Positions 14,671-24,432 of a DNA stretch of 64,000 nt are shown piece by piece (positions within the stretch are counted from its first letter, which is position 1; each line of letters starts with the position of its first letter). A program made the translations under genes and the position numbers. The notes under the pieces were generated by a model. That model had not been told where the DNA came from. It saw nothing but the letters and a program-made list of their open reading frames with translations, and did not search any database. This DNA is from Limnohabitans sp. Rim8 (GTDB taxonomy: Bacteria; Pseudomonadota; Gammaproteobacteria; Burkholderiales; Burkholderiaceae_C), in the NCBI RefSeq assembly GCF_945869175.1, contig NZ_CAMBNZ010000003.1, forward strand, positions 2,545 to 66,544, in the 5' to 3' direction.

Positions 14671-15486
14671 TCACAATGCAACGGTCGCACTGGCGTGCAA
14701 ACAAATGGCGGCAGCGGTTGCCACATTCAAGGACTCCTCGCCGCCGGGCTGGGCGATGCGAACGGAATGCTGGGCCATGGCCAGCAGGTCTTCACTCACG
14801 CCCTGCCCTTCGTGCCCGAAAACCCAGGCGCAGGGGCTGGGAAAGTCACCCCGCCTGAGCATTTCATGCAAAAAAGGACCTTCATGGGAGCTGGTGGACA
14901 AAACGGGCACTTGCAAAGCGGCCACATCGGATGGACTCACCGACTCGACCAATTTCAGACCACAATGCGCTCCCATGCCTGCTCTCAACACTTTGGGTGA
15001 CCACAGAGCGGCCGTGCCCTTGATGGCCAAAACCTGGCGATAACCAAATGCCGACGCACATCGCAAAATGGCCCCCACATTGCCTGCATCTTGCAAACGG
15101 TCCAAAACCACTGTGGGCATTTCAGCAACGATCTGTGTTTCTGCCATCCAAGCGACAACGAAGCCCATGCGTGCAGGCGATTCCAGGCCACTCAGACTGG
15201 CAAACAAGGCATCAGGCAAGACAAAGACCTGATCCGTCAACCCCATCCAATGTTGGCCTTGCTCAACCTGAAAAGACTCGGTCATTACCACCTGAGAAGG
15301 ACGCACGCCGCGCTCAAGGGCTGCCATGCACAGGTGATCGCCCTCCAGCCAAAACTGTTCAGCTTTGCGGTAAGCGGTAGTTTCCTGGGCCAAACGCCGC
15401 CAGAGCTTCACATGCGGGTTGTCTCTCGACGTGATCAAATGCACCGCACACTCCTGGCCACTGGGGCAAATGTCATTCTGTGGCAA
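14671..15486 (-). CDS. TrmH/SpoU-family RNA 2'-O-methyltransferase
   Basis: 271 aa. The C-terminal SpoU knot region reads [10 protein letters not shown]...[20 protein letters not shown]. The true start may be the GTG at 15447. The gene overlaps the rnhB stop. Confidence 0.8.
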
Positions 15487-16058
15487 TCCGCCGGACCATG
15501 GGCTTGTAATGCAGCCAAGTGTTGGGCTGTGCCATAACCTTTGTGCTGGTCAAACCCATACATCGGATGGCGCTGGTGCATCGCTTCGCACAAACGGTCG
15601 CGGTGTACCTTGGCCAAGATGGAGGCCGCCGAAATGGCTGGCACCAAAGCATCCCCCTGCACGATGGCTTCTGCCCGAATGGACAAGGTGGGCAATCGGT
15701 TGCCATCGACCAGCACCAACTTAGGGGGCAGTCGCAAAGCCTCGACGGCCCGTTTCATGGCCAACATCGTGGCTTGCAATATATTGAGTTGGTCAATTTC
15801 TTGCTCGCTCGCTTGCGCAATGGCAAAACACAGCGCACGCGCCCGGATCTCGTCAAACAAAGCCTCGCGGCGTTTGGCTGTCAGTTTTTTCGAGTCATTC
15901 AGCCCTCGAATAGGGTTCAAGTCGTCAAGGATCACGGCCGCCGCGACCACGGGGCCCGCCAATGGACCGCGCCCAGCCTCATCCACCCCGGCCATCAAGC
16001 CATCGGTATCCCAATTCAAGGTTTTTTGCTCAAGCAGCAATGGTTTTTTGAATCGCAT
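15435..16058 (-). CDS. rnhB: ribonuclease HII
   Basis: 207 aa. It has the [21 protein letters not shown] catalytic motif and DSKKLT. Confidence 0.92.
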
Positions 16059-17169
16059 GGGCGGCCAGCGTTGGCATGTCCTGACGCAGTTGATGGTGCA
16101 AAACGGTGAACCGATCCTGAAGAAGGGCCACTGCCGTGGGATCGTCCAGCCACCGCATCACCGCATTCGCGAGCGCTTGAGCTTGCACTTGCTCTTGCAA
16201 AAACTCGGGCAGCAAACTTTCGTTACACAAAATATTGGGCAACCCCACCCATGGCAGCAAGCGCTGGCGGTTGGCAATCTGCCAAGACAGCCATTGCATT
16301 TTGTAGGCGATGACCATGGGGCGCTTGTGCAAAGCGGTTTCCAATGTGGCGGTACCGCTGGCCACCAGCGCCACATCACAAGCCGCCTGCACCTCGTGCG
16401 AACGGCCCATCACCAAATGCACATGGGCTTGCATGCCCGTCTGGGCCATGACCGCCTGAATCATGGGCTTCAACAGGCCATGCGTAGGCAAGACAAATCG
16501 TAATCCAGGCCGTTGCTTCAGCATGAGCTGGGCCGCTTGCAGGAACGGCAAAGCCAAACCCTTGACCTCAGAGGGTCTGCTGCCGGGCAGCAAAGCCACG
16601 ACGGTGGCCTCGGCGGGCAAATCCAAGGCCTGCCGGGCTTGCAATCGGTCAGGCTCCAGTGCGATCACATCGGCCACCGGGTGGCCGACGAACGTGCCCT
16701 CAATCCCATGCTGGGCCAACAAATCCGGCTCAAAAGGGTAAATGCACAGGACATGGTCTACGCTGTCGCGAATTTTTTGCACCCGCTCAGGGCGCCAAGC
16801 CCAAATGGACGGGCACACCAGTTGAACCGTGGGAACACCCTTTTGACGCAGCAAGCGCTCCACCGGCAAGTTGAAGTCCGAGGCATCCACTCCCACATAC
16901 AGGTCGGGCAGGTCACTGAGCACCTGTTGAATCAAGGCCTGTCGGATGCCGTTGATATGACGGTAATTCCAAAGCGCTTCCACCAATCCCCGTACAGACA
17001 ACTCATCGCAGGACCAGCGCGAGACAAATCCTGTCGCATCCATCTGTGGCCCGCCAATGCCAGAAGCTTGCAAGCCGGGCCACACTTTGTGCAGACCACC
17101 CAGCAGCAAGGCCGCGAGCATGTCACCCGAACGCTCGGCAGCGACCATGCTCACCCTCAGGTCTGGCAT
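16030..17169 (-). CDS. lpxB: lipid-A-disaccharide synthase
   Basis: The ORF is trimmed to the ATG at 17169 ([20 protein letters not shown]). A GT19-like sequence runs throughout. Trimmed length is 379 aa. Confidence 0.9.
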
Positions 17170-17207
17170 GGTGGCATCCGATGTCGCGCGCAAGCCTGAC
17201 AAATCCA

Positions 17208-18308
17208 TCACGCGGTCAACGCCTGGCGAATCACACCACACACCTCGTCAATCGACTCGTTGCTCAACTCGGGGTAGATTGGCAGGGACAGGCAGTGCTC
17301 GGCCACCGATTCGGTGACAGGAAAACGGGTACCGTCTGCGATTGAGGCAAACACTTTTTGCTGGTGCAAAGGCACGGGATAATAAACAGCGCTGGCGATT
17401 TTGTGCTCAGTCAAAGCCTGTTGAATGGCCGCACGGTGATCGGTCAACACGGTGTACTGGTGGAACACATGCAAGCCCACGCCATCTTCGCAGGGCGTTT
17501 GCAAATTCAGGAAACACAAGCCAGCGTTGTAGCGGTGAGCAACGCGGCGACGCTCTTGGTTGTAATGGTCAATCAACGGCAGCTTGGCCCGCAGCACCAC
17601 GGCCTGCAGTTCATCAAGTCGGCTGTTGTAACCCACGATGTCGTGGTAATAACGCACCTTGCTGCCGTGGTTGCGCAGCATGCGCAGGGTTTCCGCCATG
17701 TCGTCAGACTGCGTTGTGATCATGCCGCCGTCGCCAAAGCAGCCCAAATTTTTACTGGGGAAAAAGCTGAAAGCCGCCACATCGCCAAGCGCTCCGGTTT
17801 TGCGGCCACCGATGTCGGCACCAAAAGATTGAGCGCAGTCCTCCACCAATTGAAGCTGGTGCTCTTTGGCCAAGGCCATCAACGGCGCCAAATTGGCGGG
17901 CTGTCCAAACAAATGCACTGGCAGCAAAGCCTTGGTTTGGGGGGTGATGGCGCGCTGGGCCTGCGCCACGTCGATGTTGAAGGTGCAGGGATCGATGTCC
18001 ACAAAAACCGCTTTGGCACCCACATAGGCAATGGCCTCGGCAGTGGCAATGAAGGTGAAAGGCGTGGTGATCACTTCGTCGCCAGGCCCAATGCCGGCAG
18101 CCAGCAAAGCCAAGTGCAAAGCATCGGTGCCGTTGGCGCAAGTGATGGCGTGGGCCACGCCCAGATAGTCGGCCGCCTCTTTCTCAAAGGCTTGAACATT
18201 GGGGCCCAAAATAAACTGCGCTGCAGACAAGGCCTTCAAAAATGCAGGCTCCAGCTCAGGCTGGAGATCGCGGTATTGCGCGACCAGATCGACCATAGGG
18301 ATGGGCAT
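17208..18308 (-). CDS. DegT/DnrJ/EryC1/StrS-family PLP aminotransferase (GnnB-like, candidate UDP-3-keto-GlcNAc transaminase)
   Basis: 366 aa. It has GTDALHLAL, DEVITTPFTFIAT and the PLP-lysine block FSFFPSKNLGCFGDGG. It sits between lpxA and lpxB. Confidence 0.85.
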   Translation of the reverse strand: MPIPMVDLVAQYRDLQPELEPAFLKALSAAQFILGPNVQAFEKEAADYLGVAHAITCANGTDALHLALLAAGIGPGDEVITTPFTFIATAEAIAYVGAKAVFVDIDPCTFNIDVAQAQRAITPQTKALLPVHLFGQPANLAPLMALAKEHQLQLVEDCAQSFGADIGGRKTGALGDVAAFSFFPSKNLGCFGDGGMITTQSDDMAETLRMLRNHGSKVRYYHDIVGYNSRLDELQAVVLRAKLPLIDHYNQERRRVAHRYNAGLCFLNLQTPCEDGVGLHVFHQYTVLTDHRAAIQQALTEHKIASAVYYPVPLHQQKVFASIADGTRFPVTESVAEHCLSLPIYPELSNESIDEVCGVIRQALTA

Positions 18309-18334
18309 GGCGTACCTTTCAATTGTGCAAAAAA

Positions 18335-19276
18335 TCAGGAAATCAAACGGGTGGCGTCGGTGATGCGTTGAACAGCTTGCAAGGCACGCCGTCCAGCCTC
18401 ACCACTCACTTTGGGGGGACGTTGATGTCGAACGCTCTCCACAAAGTCAAAAATCTCGGCAAACAAGGGATCGGCTTCGCCAAAGGATTGCTCATGGCGC
18501 TCAATCGCCTGCTCAGGATCGGCCAAAGGCGATGTGGCGCCTCGGTAAGTGGTCAAGGTGCGCGCCTGAAAATCCAGAGAGTGGCAGGCTTGGTCTTGAA
18601 AGACCCGCATTTTGCGCTCGCTCTTGGCGCTCACCCGACTGGCGGTGACATTGGCCACGCAGCCATTGGCAAACCGAATCCGTGCATTGGCAATGTCGAT
18701 GTCGGCAGTCAGCACACGCGCACCCGAACACTCCACGCTTTCCACCTCGCTGTTGACCAAAGACAAAATCAAATCGACATCGTGGATCATCAAGTCCAGC
18801 AACACACTGACGTCGGTGGCCCGTGGTTTGAAAGGGGCCAAGCGGGAACTGTCGATGAAACGGGGGTTCGACAGCAAGGGCTCTAAGGCCAAAGCGGCAG
18901 GGTTGAAACGCTCTAAATGACCGACGGCCAACACGCAATGGTTTTCTTTGGCCAGTCGGATCAACTCATCGGCCTGCTCCAAGGTGGTGGTCATGGGTTT
19001 TTCCACCAAGACATGCACACCAGCCCGCAAAAAATCGGCGCACACCTCGTGATGCCCTTGCGTGGGCACCACAATACTCACCGCATCCACCTGCCCGATC
19101 AAAGACCGGTAATCGGTGAGGGCAGCACAGTGCAGCGGGCCAGCGACAGCATCAGCTTGTTCCTGACGGCTGTCCACCACGGCCACCAACTGACACGCTG
19201 GAATTTTGGCGTACTTTTGAGCATGAAACTTGCCCAGATAACCAACGCCAATCACGGCGCAACGCAACAGGGCCAA
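18335..19276 (-). CDS. Gfo/Idh/MocA-family NAD-dependent oxidoreductase (GnnA-like, candidate UDP-GlcNAc 3-dehydrogenase)
   Basis: 313 aa. It has the Rossmann N-terminus CAVIGVGYLGKFHA and the EKP motif VLVEKPM. It lies directly downstream of lpxA. Confidence 0.85.
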   Translation of the reverse strand: MALLRCAVIGVGYLGKFHAQKYAKIPACQLVAVVDSRQEQADAVAGPLHCAALTDYRSLIGQVDAVSIVVPTQGHHEVCADFLRAGVHVLVEKPMTTTLEQADELIRLAKENHCVLAVGHLERFNPAALALEPLLSNPRFIDSSRLAPFKPRATDVSVLLDLMIHDVDLILSLVNSEVESVECSGARVLTADIDIANARIRFANGCVANVTASRVSAKSERKMRVFQDQACHSLDFQARTLTTYRGATSPLADPEQAIERHEQSFGEADPLFAEIFDFVESVRHQRPPKVSGEAGRRALQAVQRITDATRLIS

Positions 19277-19327: not shown

Positions 19328-20143
19328 TCAATCCACCGAACGGCGACGCGAACGAACGATGCCGACCTTGGGGGAAACACCCGCCAGGAAGTCCACCATC
19401 ATGTCGACATCGGCCTGGATCTCGGGTTTGTCCTTGGCCATTTGCACGATGCGTTCTTTGGACGCATCCAAACTGAGGTTTTCCCGGTACAGGGCTTTGT
19501 GCATGGCGCGAACAGTCGCAATGCGGTCGGGCGAATAACCGCGACGACGCAAACCTTCCGCGTTCACCGTGCGGGCAGATGCGGGTTGGCCTTGGCAGGT
19601 CACATAAGGCGGAAGATCCGCGAACAACAAGGTGCACATGGCGGTGAAGCTGTGTGCGCCCAAACGCAGAAATTGGCGAACCACGGTGAAACCCCCCAAG
19701 ATGACCCAATCACCCACCACCACGTGCCCTGCCAACTGCGAGTTGTTGGCGAAGATCGTGTGACTGCCTATTTGGCAGTCGTGCGCCAAATGCACGTAAG
19801 CCATGAACAGGTTGTCATCGCCCACCCGCGTCACGCCGCCCCCATTCACTGTTCCGGCATTGAAGGTGCAAAATTCGCGGATGGTGTTTCCATGGCCAAT
19901 TTCCAGACGAGTGGGTTCGCCCGCATACTTTTTATCCTGAGGCGCTGCGCCCAAGGAGGTGTAACTGTGGACATGGTTGTTCTGTCCCATCGTGGTGTAA
20001 CCCTCGATCGTGCAATGCGAGCCCACGGTTGAACCCGCACCGATCACCACGTTCGGTCCAATGGTGGTGAAAGGCCCAACCGTGACAGAAGCATCAAGTT
20101 GGGCGGCTGGATCGACCAATGCGGTAGAGTGAATAGTCGCCAT
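19328..20143 (-). CDS. lpxA: acyl-ACP--UDP-N-acetylglucosamine O-acyltransferase
   Basis: 271 aa. It starts MATIHSTALVDPAAQLDASVTVGPFTTIGPNVVIG, carries left-handed beta-helix hexapeptide repeats and has the alpha-helical C-terminal domain. Confidence 0.93.
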   Translation of the reverse strand: MATIHSTALVDPAAQLDASVTVGPFTTIGPNVVIGAGSTVGSHCTIEGYTTMGQNNHVHSYTSLGAAPQDKKYAGEPTRLEIGHGNTIREFCTFNAGTVNGGGVTRVGDDNLFMAYVHLAHDCQIGSHTIFANNSQLAGHVVVGDWVILGGFTVVRQFLRLGAHSFTAMCTLLFADLPPYVTCQGQPASARTVNAEGLRRRGYSPDRIATVRAMHKALYRENLSLDASKERIVQMAKDKPEIQADVDMMVDFLAGVSPKVGIVRSRRRSVD

Positions 20144-20149
20144 AGGTCC

Positions 20150-20590
20150 TCACGCGATTTTGCGCATGGTGCACATCAATTCAGCCTCACAAGCCAGTTC
20201 ATCTCCGACTTTGGCTTGGGCTTTGAATTTGAAAATTCCAGCTTTCATGCGGTCAAGCCGCACCTCCAATGTCAGTTGATCACCAGGCTCCACAGGTCGC
20301 TTGAAACGCGCGCCGTCAATCCCCGCAAAGTAGTAAAGCGTATTCTCGTCAGGGGCTGCATCCAAGCTGTCAAAAGTCAACAGGGCTGCCGCCTGGGCCA
20401 GTGCCTCCAGCATCAAGACGCCCGGCATGACAGGACGGTGAGGAAAATGACCGGTGAAAAATGGTTCATTGATCGTGACGTTTTTCAAGGCTTTGATGCG
20501 TACGCCTTTTTCGATTTCGAGCACGCGGTCCACCAGTAAAAACGGGTAACGGTGCGGCAGTAGTTTGAGAATTTTATGGATGTCCATCAT
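20150..20590 (-). CDS. fabZ: 3-hydroxyacyl-ACP dehydratase FabZ
   Basis: The ORF is trimmed to the ATG at 20590 ([23 protein letters not shown]). The motif [16 protein letters not shown] is present. Length is 146 aa. Confidence 0.93.
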
Positions 20591-21596
20591 GGTCGTTTTC
20601 CTGATTGTTCTGAATGTCGGCTTCAAGCGCTTTGATGCGTTCACGCAAGCGGGACAATTGTTTGAGGCTGGCCGCGTTCTTTTCCCAATTGGCGTTGGTG
20701 TCCAAGGGGAACATGCCGGTGTAGTTGCCGGGCTGAGTGATGGAGCGCGTGACCACCGAGGCTGCTGAAATGTGCACATGGTCCGCCAAGGTCAAATGCC
20801 CCAGCACCACCGCGCCACCGCCGACCGTGCAATGGGCACCGATCCGGGCACTCCCGGCCACACCCACACAACCGGCCATGGCGGTGTGTTTGCCAACCTG
20901 CACGTTGTGCCCGATTTGAATCAGGTTGTCCAACTTCACACCGTCTTCAATCACCGTATCTGCCAAAGCACCACGGTCAATGCAGGTGTTGGCACCGATT
21001 TCCACATCGTCGCCAATGCGCACCGCGCCCAGTTGCTCAATTTTTTCCCATCGCCCTTGGTGGGGGGCAAAACCAAAACCATCGGCACCGATCACCACAC
21101 CGGAATGGATCAGGCAGCGCGCTCCGATTTTGCAGTCTTCACCGACGGTGACACGCGACTTCAGCCAAGTTGCGGGGCCGATCTCGGCACCGCGTTCAAT
21201 TACGCACAAAGGGCCGATCACGGCATCTTCGGCAATCAACGCATCCCGGTCAACCACCGCAGTGGGATGAATTTGAGGACCAGCAGGGCTTGGGTGCGCG
21301 CGCTTCCATAAACGGGTCAAGCGGGCAAAATACAAATAGGGGTCGTCGGTGATGATGGCCGCTGATCGGTGGGCGACTTGGGACTCGAAAGCGGGGGCAA
21401 CAATCACACAGCCCGCCATGCTGGTCGACAACTGGTTTTGAAACCGTGCTTGACTTAAAAAACTGACCTGCCCGACTTGCGCGGTCTGCAGCGGTGCCAG
21501 CCCAGACACTTGCATGTCGGGAGAACCCAACAAACGGCCGCCCAAGGTCTCAACAATAGCGCCAAGCGTCAGCGACACGGTCTCAAACAGGCTCAA
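20574..21596 (-). CDS. lpxD: UDP-3-O-acylglucosamine N-acyltransferase
   Basis: 340 aa. It has hexapeptide repeats and a C-terminal coiled region. Its position upstream of fabZ is the conserved one. Confidence 0.92.
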
Positions 21597-21601
21597 GCCT
21601 G

Positions 21602-22120
21602 TTATTTGCTCACCGAGGCGTTGAGCACCTTGATGACTTTTTCAGTGATGTCGTGCTTGGGATTGAAGTAAGCCGCATCTTGCAAGATCAAGTCGTATCT
21701 TTCAGACTCAGCCACTTGCTTGACGGCACGGCCTGCTTTTTCAAACAGCATTTGGTTCTCTTCGTTCTTGCGGGCACTCAAATCTTCTTGAAATTCGCGC
21801 TGACGCCGCTTCAAATCACGGTCTTGTTCAACCAACTGCTTTTGCTTGGTGACGCGTTGAGATTCTGACAAAGTCGGCGCATCCCGCTCAAATTTTTCAG
21901 CCGCGACCTTGAACCCATTGATCGCATCGTTCAGGTCTTTTTCGCGTTTTAAAAATTCAGATTCGAGCTTGCCTTGAGCCGCTTTGGCGACATTGGAGTC
22001 ACGCAATATACGGTCGGTGTTGACGATGCCAACTTTGAAATCTTGCGCTTGCGCCCAGCCCGTCAAAGCCGATGCACCCGCCAGCAGCGCGACGAGAAGG
22101 TTCTTGCGAATCGTTTTCAT
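21602..22120 (-). CDS. skp: periplasmic chaperone Skp/OmpH
   Basis: 172 aa. It has a signal peptide ([25 protein letters not shown]) and a Lys/Glu/Gln-rich helical body. It lies between bamA and lpxD. Confidence 0.88.
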
Positions 22121-24432
22121 TAGAAAGAGGTTCCGATCTGGAATTGGAGTTTCTGGATTTTATCGCCAGTCTGTTGATGGACAGGCGTGGCATAAGAGAA
22201 GCGCAAGGGGCCCATCGGTGAAATCCAGCTCAGGCCGATACCGGCTGATGCACGCAATTCAGACAGTGACACCCTTTCAGCATCACCAAACGCGCGGCCC
22301 ACATCGGTAAATCCGAACAACCGCAAAGTTTTATCATTGCCCGCTCCTGGGAAGGGCACGATGAACTCGGCGTTCAGGACGATCTTTTTAGAACCGCCAA
22401 TGTAGATGCCTGCTGTTTGCGAAGCAGGGCCAAGTGTAGATTGTTCAAAACCCCGAACACTGCCCAAACCGCCCACATAGAAATTCTTGAACAGCGGGTA
22501 TGTTTGACCATTCAAGCCTTGGCCCCAACCCAAATCGGCATTCAGTGCCAGCGTATATTTGTTGCTCAAGGGGTAATAGTACTGGTGCTGGTAGCTGGTT
22601 CGTACATAACGCACATCGCCGGCCAAGCTCAGGTCCGCGTTGAAACGCTGAAAACTGCCTTTTGACGGCACCAAAGCACTGTCTCGACCATCCCTGGCCC
22701 AACCCAAAGTGAGTGGGAATGCGGTACTTTTAAAACCGAAAAGTTGTCCATATTGGTTGTATTCATATGGCAAATTGCCAGCCGTGCCTTTGTCAATGGT
22801 GGTCTGTTCCGCATTCATGCCTAAAAAGACCGTGTCGTTTTCGGTGACGGGCACGCCAAAACGAATCCCTGCACCGGTGTTGACCAAGCTGTAACTGCTC
22901 AAATCGGTGGTCAGATAAGGGCGGGTCGTCCGGTGAAAGATGTCCAATGTTCTGGAGATGCCGTTTTGGGTGAAATAGGGGTCGGTTGTGCTCAAGACCA
23001 GATTGCGGTTGTATTTGCTGGTATTGACTTCAACCGCCAAATAGTTCCCCGAACCGAAGGCGTTTTCCTGACGGATACCGAAGCTCAAGGTCACTTTTTC
23101 GGTGGACGAAAACCCAGCGCCCAAAGAAATGCTGCCCGTTGGCTTTTCAGTCACCGTGAAAGCCAAGTCAACTTGGTCGGGCGCACCAGGAATTTCAACC
23201 GTTTCCACGTTCACTGAGGTGAAAAAGCCCAAACGGTCTACTCGGTCACGTGACAAACGGATCTTGTCACCGTCGTACCAAGCGGCTTCAAACTGGCGAA
23301 ACTCGCGCCGAATCACCTCATCGCGTGTGCGGTTGTTTCCAGCGATCAAAATGCGCCGGACATAAGCACGGCGTGATGGCTCTGCTTGCAAGACGAATTG
23401 CACACGGTTGCTTGAACGGTCAATTTCAGGTTTGACCTCCACGCGGGCAAAAGCAAAACCGAATGTGCCAAAGTAATCCGTGAAGGCTTTGGAGGTCTCT
23501 GCCACCGTCTCGGCGTTGTAGGGCTTGCCAATGGCAATCTTGACCAAAGCCTTGAACTCATCGTCTTTGTTCAGGAAGTTGCCTTCCAACTTGACACCCG
23601 AGACCACAAACCGCTCGCCCTCGGTCACATTGATCGTGATCGCCATTTCCTGCTTGTCTGGAGAAATGGCCACCTGCGTCGAGTCAATCCTAAACTCCAA
23701 GAACCCTCGGGAGAGATAGTAAGAACGCAACGCCTCCAAATCGGCATTGAGCTTGGTGCGGGCATACCGGTCCGACTTGGTGTACCAGCTCATCCAGCCA
23801 CCTGTGTCCAAACTGAATTGGTCTCGCAAATCGGACTCAGAAAATACCTTGTTGCCTACGATCTGGATTTGCTTGATCTTGGCGGGCCCACCTTCTGTGA
23901 TGGTGAAACTCAAATTCACACGGTTGCGATCAACCGGCGTGGCCGTGCTCACCACTTCGGCACCATAAAGGCTGCGATTGATGTACTGGCGCTTGAGTTC
24001 TTGCTCGGCTTTATCGGCCAAGGCTTTGTCGTAGGGCCTGCCTTCGGCCAAACCCACATCTTTGAGCGCTTTGATCAGGACATCTTTGTCAAACTCTTTG
24101 AGGCCAATGAACTCCACCACGGCCACCGATGGACGCTCTTCGACCACCACCACCAAGATGTCACCCTGTGTTTCCAAGCGCACATCTTTGAACAAGCCCA
24201 AAGCAAACAAGGCACGAATTGCAGCGGCCCCTTTTTCATCCGAATACTGATCGCCCACCCGCAGTGGCAAGGAGGCGAAAACAGTGCCGGATTCAATCCG
24301 CTGCAAACCCTCCACACGGATGTCACGCACCGTGAAAGGCTCCACCGCCCAAGTGGGCAAGCAGGCCAACAAGGTCGCCGCCAGCGTCAGTGCAGCAGGT
24401 TGGAGGCGTGGTCGAATGTCAAAAAGATTCAT
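22120..24432 (-). CDS. bamA: outer membrane protein assembly factor BamA
   Basis: 770 aa. It has a signal peptide, POTRA repeats (FTVRDIRVEGLQRI...) and a C-terminal beta-barrel ending in the aromatic terminus QFQIGTSF. Confidence 0.95.
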   Translation of the reverse strand: MNLFDIRPRLQPAALTLAATLLACLPTWAVEPFTVRDIRVEGLQRIESGTVFASLPLRVGDQYSDEKGAAAIRALFALGLFKDVRLETQGDILVVVVEERPSVAVVEFIGLKEFDKDVLIKALKDVGLAEGRPYDKALADKAEQELKRQYINRSLYGAEVVSTATPVDRNRVNLSFTITEGGPAKIKQIQIVGNKVFSESDLRDQFSLDTGGWMSWYTKSDRYARTKLNADLEALRSYYLSRGFLEFRIDSTQVAISPDKQEMAITINVTEGERFVVSGVKLEGNFLNKDDEFKALVKIAIGKPYNAETVAETSKAFTDYFGTFGFAFARVEVKPEIDRSSNRVQFVLQAEPSRRAYVRRILIAGNNRTRDEVIRREFRQFEAAWYDGDKIRLSRDRVDRLGFFTSVNVETVEIPGAPDQVDLAFTVTEKPTGSISLGAGFSSTEKVTLSFGIRQENAFGSGNYLAVEVNTSKYNRNLVLSTTDPYFTQNGISRTLDIFHRTTRPYLTTDLSSYSLVNTGAGIRFGVPVTENDTVFLGMNAEQTTIDKGTAGNLPYEYNQYGQLFGFKSTAFPLTLGWARDGRDSALVPSKGSFQRFNADLSLAGDVRYVRTSYQHQYYYPLSNKYTLALNADLGWGQGLNGQTYPLFKNFYVGGLGSVRGFEQSTLGPASQTAGIYIGGSKKIVLNAEFIVPFPGAGNDKTLRLFGFTDVGRAFGDAERVSLSELRASAGIGLSWISPMGPLRFSYATPVHQQTGDKIQKLQFQIGTSF

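Follow-up and report, generated by a model that had tools for sequence, protein, structure and literature searches.

The analysed window is a stretch of 64,000 nucleotides (nt) from Limnohabitans sp. Rim8 (contig NZ_CAMBNZ010000003.1, positions 2,545 to 66,544), the genome of which is 2.77 Mb in size and 90% complete. The minus strand of the window carries an operon for lipid A biosynthesis, in which two additional genes, coding for a dehydrogenase of 313 amino acids (aa) and an aminotransferase of 366 aa, are located between lpxA and lpxB (positions 17208-19276). An earlier interpretation of the same DNA, here called the sequence-only reading, had assigned the two proteins to the GnnA and GnnB type and had predicted a lipid A backbone of 2,3-diamino-2,3-dideoxyglucose (GlcN3N), alone or mixed with glucosamine (GlcN). 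The four genes lpxA-gnnA-gnnB-lpxB, which appear to have been exchanged as one segment, are referred to as the cassette. Listed from the upstream end, the operon comprises the following features (UDP-GlcNAc, UDP-N-acetylglucosamine; GlcNAc3N, its 3-amino sugar; ACP, acyl carrier protein; PLP, pyridoxal 5'-phosphate).

22120-24432, minus strand: bamA (TIGR03303, 836 bits), native upstream flank
21602-22120, minus strand: skp, native upstream part of the operon
20574-21596, minus strand: lpxD (family match), native upstream part of the operon
about 20150-20590, minus strand: fabZ; the upstream end of the exchanged segment falls within the 3' half of this gene or shortly behind it
19328-20143, minus strand: lpxA of the cassette type (NF003657, 328 bits), predicted acyl-ACP:UDP-GlcNAc/GlcNAc3N acyltransferase
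18335-19276, minus strand: gnnA orthologue, 313 aa, TTG start (PF01408, 112 bits; PF22725; PF02894), predicted UDP-GlcNAc 3-dehydrogenase
17208-18308, minus strand: gnnB candidate, 366 aa (PF01041, 410 bits), DegT-family PLP-dependent sugar C3-aminotransferase
16030-17208 (start ambiguous), minus strand: lpxB of the cassette type (TIGR00215, 286 bits), lipid A disaccharide synthase
15435-16058, minus strand: rnhB (NF000596, 285 bits), native downstream flank

Gene and family calls confirmed the previously described order bamA-skp-lpxD-fabZ-lpxA-[313 aa]-[366 aa]-lpxB-rnhB, with all genes on the minus strand. The gaps reported earlier between lpxA and the 313-aa gene (51 nt) and between the two additional genes (26 nt) are exact; the third, 38 nt in front of lpxB, applies only if lpxB starts with the ATG at position 17169. 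An alternative in-frame ATG is located at position 17208, where its A is shared with the TGA stop codon of gnnB. This start yields an LpxB protein of 392 aa, which is the length of most LpxB homologues in the databases. The lipid A genes and the flanking genes all score above their NCBIfam cut-offs, and the open reading frames of gnnA and gnnB are intact and of full length relative to their homologues. Neither promoter-like nor convincing terminator-like sites were seen between the genes of the operon. Independent lake metagenome contigs of 1605 and 2383 nt, obtained in other studies, span gnnB-lpxB and fabZ-lpxA-gnnA-gnnB. Since these contigs bridge the same junctions, the gene order is not an assembly artefact.

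The best solved relative of the 313-aa protein was found to be GnnA of Acidithiobacillus ferrooxidans (7bvj/7bvk, PDB title 'UDP-N-acetylglucosamine 3-dehydrogenase GnnA from Acidithiobacillus ferrooxidans'), with a phmmer E value of 6e-69 compared to 1.6e-18 for the next match. The predicted structure has a mean confidence (predicted local distance difference test, pLDDT) of 91.7. Structural alignment of the model with 7bvj/7bvk gave a Z score of 41.2, a root-mean-square deviation of 1.5 and a sequence identity of 44%, followed by generic family members at Z scores of about 35 and identities of 20-26% (best Z 35.5 at 22%). Invariant in an alignment of 10 GnnA orthologues are the NAD-binding glycines G10, G12 and G15, as well as E92-K93-P94 and H165-D166, which correspond to the catalytic EKP and His/Asp motifs. 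Based on these comparisons, the protein is a clear orthologue of A. ferrooxidans GnnA, for which UDP-GlcNAc 3-dehydrogenase activity is predicted. The WbpB type, named in the sequence-only reading as a caveat, is represented by WlbA of Bordetella pertussis (3q2k), which ranked only 22nd (Z score 34.0, 18% identity). Neither WlbA nor WbpB is among the 60 phmmer matches listed for the 313-aa protein. The identity of 18%, as opposed to 44% to GnnA, rules out a WbpB/WlbA type for the dehydrogenase, in line with its earlier assignment to the GnnA type.

The 366-aa protein has a DegT fold, in which the PLP-lysine motif S185-K186-N187 and D157 are invariant in the alignment. Among solved structures, its closest matches are without exception nucleotide-sugar C3-aminotransferases (an Archaeoglobus enzyme, DesV, QdtB, WlaRG, Pcryo_0616 and WbpE), with Z scores of 46-49 and identities of 35-43%. 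The identities to WbpE, Pcryo_0616, DesV and the archaeal enzyme are alike at 41-43%, and none of the matches was recognisable as a GnnB structure. The top structure match, 7b0d, is an uncharacterised sugar transaminase from Archaeoglobus and therefore of no help in assigning the substrate. Downstream of gnnA in Halothiobacillaceae, Methylococcales and Geobacter, there are genes whose products are 59-71% identical to the protein. Of its earlier assignment as GnnB, the placement in the group of DegT-type sugar C3-aminotransferases stands, but by sequence GnnB is not separable from WbpE. The assignment as GnnB hence relies on the neighbouring GnnA and on the genomic context. The 366-aa protein is accordingly described as a putative sugar C3-aminotransferase that fits GnnB and with which a WbpE-type enzyme is also compatible.

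A gnnA orthologue was detected in 35 of 127 Limnohabitans genomes (about 28%), including 20 of the 69 genomes of high quality. Limnohabitans sp. DCL3, Hippo3 and T6-20 are among the carrier strains. In the family as a whole it occurs in 5 of 301 genomes and in 2 of 166 genera, namely Limnohabitans and the Serpentinimonas-like genus g107, which agrees with the earlier statement that the predicted backbone is not the textbook one for Burkholderiales. In g107, the pair is likewise part of the four-gene unit lpxA-gnnA-gnnB-lpxB, and its GnnA is 92% identical to a protein that is assigned by NCBI to Serpentinimonas raichei. In Limnohabitans genomes lacking the orthologue (non-carriers), the operon is otherwise the same and lpxB comes immediately after lpxA. 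Of the 80 gnnA loci obtained by scanning named genomes, 77 are outside Limnohabitans; Acidithiobacillus was not represented among the 80. In 44 of these 77 loci, lpxA and/or lpxB is found within 3.5 kb of gnnA, including loci of Legionella, Geobacter, Desulfobacterales, Methylococcales and Halothiobacillaceae. The genes gnnA and gnnB are adjacent in 33 of the 77 loci, and the order lpxA-gnnA-gnnB-lpxB is present in several of these distant loci. The lipid A of Legionella is based on GlcN3N.

Some loci deviate from this arrangement. Many gammaproteobacterial loci (L109, L111, L120, L123, L131, L137 and L145) have the layout rnhB(-) gnnA gnnB lpxB(+), sometimes followed by lpxA(-) and fabZ(-), and their LpxB proteins are merely 29-37% identical to that of the window. 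A locus from Ectothiorhodospiraceae (L140) features a second lpxA beside gnnAB in addition to a standard lpxA-lpxB-rnhB set. In another family of the same order (L103, G027:C21:31000-44500), gnnA is a remote homologue (49%) that lies outside the lpx operon, in divergent orientation to a DegT gene (41%); this gnnA groups with Sulfuritalea, away from the cassette. A Limnohabitans genome of 79% completeness and 4% contamination (G387:C149:1223-2146) encodes a GnnA with 73% identity to that of the window, which is as distant as the Serpentinimonas-like copy. This GnnA may stem from contamination or point to a third lineage of the cassette within Limnohabitans.

The whole operon was compared using 12 non-carriers, 8 carriers, 2 genomes of g107 and 17 other members of the family. 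Across the genus Limnohabitans, the identity to LpxA of the window is bimodal, with 83-94% in carriers and 63-68% in non-carriers. LpxB of the window is 74-88% identical to that of other carriers, 52-56% to that of non-carrier congeners and 47-58% to that of 45 other genera of the family. As a control, a pair of non-carriers was used that has the same BamA distance as the window has to the sister non-carrier clade. The identities of the individual proteins are as follows.

BamA: window vs sister non-carrier 82%, control pair 82%
FabZ: window vs sister non-carrier 88%, control pair 97%
LpxA: window vs sister non-carrier 66%, control pair 91%
LpxB: window vs sister non-carrier 56%, control pair 81%
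RnhB: window vs sister non-carrier 93%, control pair 81%

Between the window and g107, the flanks are 55-63% identical, which is lower than for other genera, and the values for LpxA, GnnA, GnnB and LpxB are 72%, 74%, 79% and 68%, respectively. In sliding windows against the sister non-carriers, the fabZ/lpxA junction marks a drop in identity from about 88% to 64-69%, whereas the control pair remains at 90-100%. The identity to the sister non-carriers rises from about 56% at the end of lpxB to 92-96% in rnhB, with the break located exactly at the lpxB/rnhB junction. The upstream break maps to the 3' half of fabZ or immediately behind it; the two carrier lineages share 95% identity in FabZ, compared to 88% with non-carriers. 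Each carrier genome contains a single lpxA and a single lpxB, and one lpxA match each was obtained in the genome of the window (G000) and in the complete carrier genomes G400 and G401. Because of these single copies, LpxA and LpxB of the cassette are the housekeeping enzymes of the carriers.

Upstream of the cassette, skp and the 5' third of lpxD form a second mosaic segment. Skp of the main carrier clade is 56-74% identical to that of the sister non-carriers, compared to 85-96% in control pairs. It is not g107-like (57%), and the second carrier lineage, G018, has a Skp of the native type.

Careful maximum-likelihood trees were calculated with the default site-heterogeneous model. In the trees of LpxA and of LpxB, carrier Limnohabitans and g107 form a clade with 100/100 support, apart from the non-carrier Limnohabitans. 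In the tree of the concatenated flanks BamA, LpxD, RnhB and TrmH, all 21 Limnohabitans genomes form one clade (support 100). In this tree, six non-carriers form the sister group of the main carrier clade, G018 represents a separate second lineage of carriers, and g107 clusters with two other genera. Monophyly of Limnohabitans was rejected in the approximately unbiased (AU) test for LpxA (p 4.5e-4) and LpxB (p 8e-6), whereas a position of the cassette beside the flank-tree sister of g107 was not rejected (p about 0.4). These two results make the cassette LpxA and LpxB compatible with a Serpentinimonas-like origin, not with an origin in Limnohabitans. By their sequences, the two proteins are of the Comamonadaceae type and not of the Limnohabitans type. 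The gnnA genes of the cassette are monophyletic (support 100) and nested among gammaproteobacterial gnnA genes, far from the other betaproteobacterial copies. LpxC, LpxH and LpxK, which are encoded elsewhere in the genome, follow the species relations without excess similarity among carriers.

LpxA and LpxB of the carriers thus group with g107, while the flanks, LpxC, LpxH and LpxK follow the species tree, indicating that the four-gene block moved together. The trees and identity profiles show lpxA-gnnA-gnnB-lpxB as one co-transferred unit that replaced the native lpxA-lpxB pair in some Limnohabitans, and on this evidence gnnAB is not a simple insertion. According to the proposed course of events, gnnAB would first have been inserted between lpxA and lpxB of a Serpentinimonas-like lineage, after which the four genes would have co-evolved. 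The block would later have passed into Limnohabitans at least twice, with the native lpxA-lpxB being replaced by recombination in the conserved flanks fabZ and rnhB.

LpxA of the cassette type has an arginine at residue 156 in all 11 sequences. This position corresponds to His160 of E. coli LpxA, and histidine is present in all 29 other Comamonadaceae LpxAs and in all 17 distant gnnA-linked LpxAs. His160 belongs to the substrate/pantetheine site as a conserved basic residue, and activity is lost when it is exchanged for alanine (PMC6408518; bioRxiv 10.1101/850305). Besides H160R in LpxA, the fixed changes specific to the cassette include G14A, P100S and H119Q in LpxB. No signature of gnnAB linkage shared by LpxA or LpxB was found among 17 distant LpxA and 36 distant LpxB sequences linked to gnnA. 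Since the cassette-specific changes are not common to these distant sequences, a general LpxA/LpxB signature is not apparent.

By analogy to the A. ferrooxidans system, GnnA would oxidise the 3-hydroxyl group of UDP-GlcNAc with NAD+, and GnnB would transaminate the resulting 3-keto sugar to UDP-GlcNAc3N. LpxA of the neighbouring cassette gene would then N-acylate the new 3-amine and, after the steps catalysed by LpxC, LpxD and LpxH, the cassette LpxB would join two 3-amino units. The product would be a lipid A that consists wholly or partly of GlcN3N and carries its acyl chains at positions 3 and 3' in amide linkage. As the carriers keep no native LpxA, GlcN3N probably makes up most or all of their backbone, although a mixture of GlcN and GlcN3N is also possible. 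The prediction of GlcN3N lipid A made in the sequence-only reading is thereby well supported, because the GnnA orthologue is clear and because the pair is located in the lipid A operon and apparently was co-transferred with lpxA and lpxB. A search of the literature on the lipid A of Limnohabitans or Serpentinimonas yielded nothing relevant.

Several observations weigh against this interpretation of function and transfer. The substrate of the pair (UDP-GlcNAc vs its uronic acid form, UDP-GlcNAcA) and the fate of the product are what we infer, and WbpE is as near to the GnnB candidate (41% identity) as any other solved C3-aminotransferase. A shared LpxA signature of GlcN3N use was not found; H160R, the single change specific to the cassette that affects a conserved site of LpxA, is absent from the 17 distant gnnA-linked LpxAs. 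Metatranscriptome contigs from two lake studies cover gnnA and gnnB in part, which is not proof of transcription, and the lack of cover over the other parts carries no meaning either. The base composition has no anomaly over the cassette, so any transfer must be old. For the direction of transfer, the basis is a placement that was not rejected rather than a resolved node. The trees and AU tests may be affected by long branches, given the long stems of LpxA and LpxB and the deviant amino acid composition of g107. The stems of the cassette clade amount to 0.34 (LpxA) and 0.68 (LpxB) changes per site. The branch of g107 measures 0.51 in the flank tree, compared to 0.74 and 1.08 for LpxA and LpxB, respectively. 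The generally long g107 branch explains part of the stems, and the additional acceleration of LpxA and LpxB is therefore modest.

The same stems and the unusual composition of g107 would fit an explanation without block transfer, in which gnnAB was inserted independently, or inherited vertically with many losses, and in which the LpxA and LpxB proteins became alike by fast convergence (long-branch attraction). However, GnnA and GnnB yield the same clade of carriers plus g107, and the identity breaks at the fabZ/lpxA and lpxB/rnhB junctions are sharp. Under vertical inheritance, the genes would also have to be lost in about 164 of 166 genera, and every loss would have to restore lpxA and lpxB of the native type. 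With a site-heterogeneous model in use and with AU tests that reject this alternative, we regard it as unlikely. With respect to function, the pair could provide UDP-GlcNAc3N for a glycan other than lipid A, such as an O-antigen, a capsule or, after N-acetylation, a 2,3-diacetamido sugar. This option gains from the best NCBIfam match of the dehydrogenase, the archaeal UDP-GlcNAc 3-dehydrogenase NF040723 (207 bits, under the cut-off of 450), an enzyme that feeds diacetamido sugars, and from the aminotransferase clade, which is common to O-antigen enzymes. Gene calls and family matches, however, revealed no N-acetyltransferase, glycosyltransferase or flippase at the locus, and the pair, which has lpxA on one side and lpxB on the other, moves together with these two genes rather than with polysaccharide genes. 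The polysaccharide-type DegT gene of the genome is located elsewhere. It is the only other true DegT aminotransferase of the genome (G000:C61, L187:309-2782) and has a NeuD/PglB-type acetyltransferase and a polyprenyl-phosphate sugar transferase as neighbours, with which it makes up a bacillosamine-like module for polysaccharides that has no relation to the lipid A locus. A role of the pair in another glycan is thus considered quite improbable.

A conversion of UDP-GlcNAcA to UDP-GlcNAc3NA by a WbpB/WbpE-type pair, leading to the 2,3-diacetamido uronic acids of an O-antigen, would involve the same two protein families and would be in keeping with the similarity of the aminotransferase to WbpE (41%, E value 1e-92). 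It conflicts with the affiliation of the dehydrogenase described above, as GnnA, and neither WlbA nor WbpB, dominates its matches. Family matches at the locus, to which this search was confined, gave no WbpA-, WbpD- or WbpI-like genes nearby. The neighbours of the pair are all bamA, skp, lpxD, fabZ, lpxA, lpxB and rnhB, i.e. there is no clustering with O-antigen genes at the locus. We consider such a pathway very improbable. Taken together, we conclude that the synthesis of GlcN3N lipid A by GnnA and GnnB, encoded in a transferred lpxA-gnnA-gnnB-lpxB replacement block, is, as a whole, the best and a likely explanation of the locus.

The enzyme pair and its chemistry are already known and are textbook knowledge for specialists in lipid A, so that the annotation by itself matters little. 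What appears to be new is the evolutionary setting, namely the replacement of lipid A genes as a block and a predicted polymorphism of the backbone within one genus. Limnohabitans is an abundant and cultivable model genus of lake bacterioplankton and an associate of Daphnia. Closely related strains with and without the cassette constitute a natural comparison set for effects of a GlcN3N backbone, which could address outer-membrane stability and resistance to grazing, phages or antimicrobial peptides. LpxA and LpxB are the only Lpx proteins that travel with gnnAB, while LpxC, LpxH and LpxK are native, which is a hint as to which steps of the Raetz pathway need co-adaptation to a 3-amino substrate. 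Alkaline hydrolysis cleaves ester-linked acyl chains, whereas those in amide linkage are resistant to it. As a tentative and rather speculative extension, the cassette might be a self-sufficient 'backbone-swap' module, in which LpxA and LpxB have to be co-adapted for the switch of GlcN to GlcN3N, whereas LpxC, LpxD, LpxH and LpxK can stay as they are. Such a module might have arisen in hyperalkaliphilic Serpentinimonas and spread by homologous replacement into some freshwater Limnohabitans, giving rise to the backbone polymorphism within the genus.

The closest known system is GnnA/GnnB of A. ferrooxidans (Sweet, Ribeiro and Raetz 2004, J Biol Chem 279:25400, as summarised in PMC8036547 and PMC5644692). 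The locus of the window resembles it in the two protein families, in the adjacency of the genes and their linkage to lipid A genes, and in the predicted product UDP-GlcNAc3N. It differs in its host, a genus of Comamonadaceae without described GlcN3N lipid A. A further difference is that the gene pair belongs here to a unit of four genes with LpxA and LpxB alleles of its own; this unit took the place of the resident genes and is carried by only about 28% of the genus. In Campylobacter jejuni, inactivation of gnnA/gnnB raises TLR4 (Toll-like receptor 4) activation and the sensitivity to antimicrobial peptides (van Mourik et al., as summarised in PMC8036547). Common to both systems is the change from ester- to amide-linked acyl chains of lipid A, which is predicted for the carriers, and a possible mixture of GlcN and GlcN3N. 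C. jejuni is a host-associated epsilonproteobacterium, whereas Limnohabitans is a free-living lake bacterium. With WbpB/WbpE (WlbA/WlbC) of Pseudomonas aeruginosa and B. pertussis, the pair shares the Gfo/Idh/MocA and DegT folds, chemistry at C3 of a UDP-sugar and an identity of 41% to WbpE. It is distinguished from them by a dehydrogenase with only 18% identity to WlbA and by its location in a lipid A operon instead of an O-antigen cluster.

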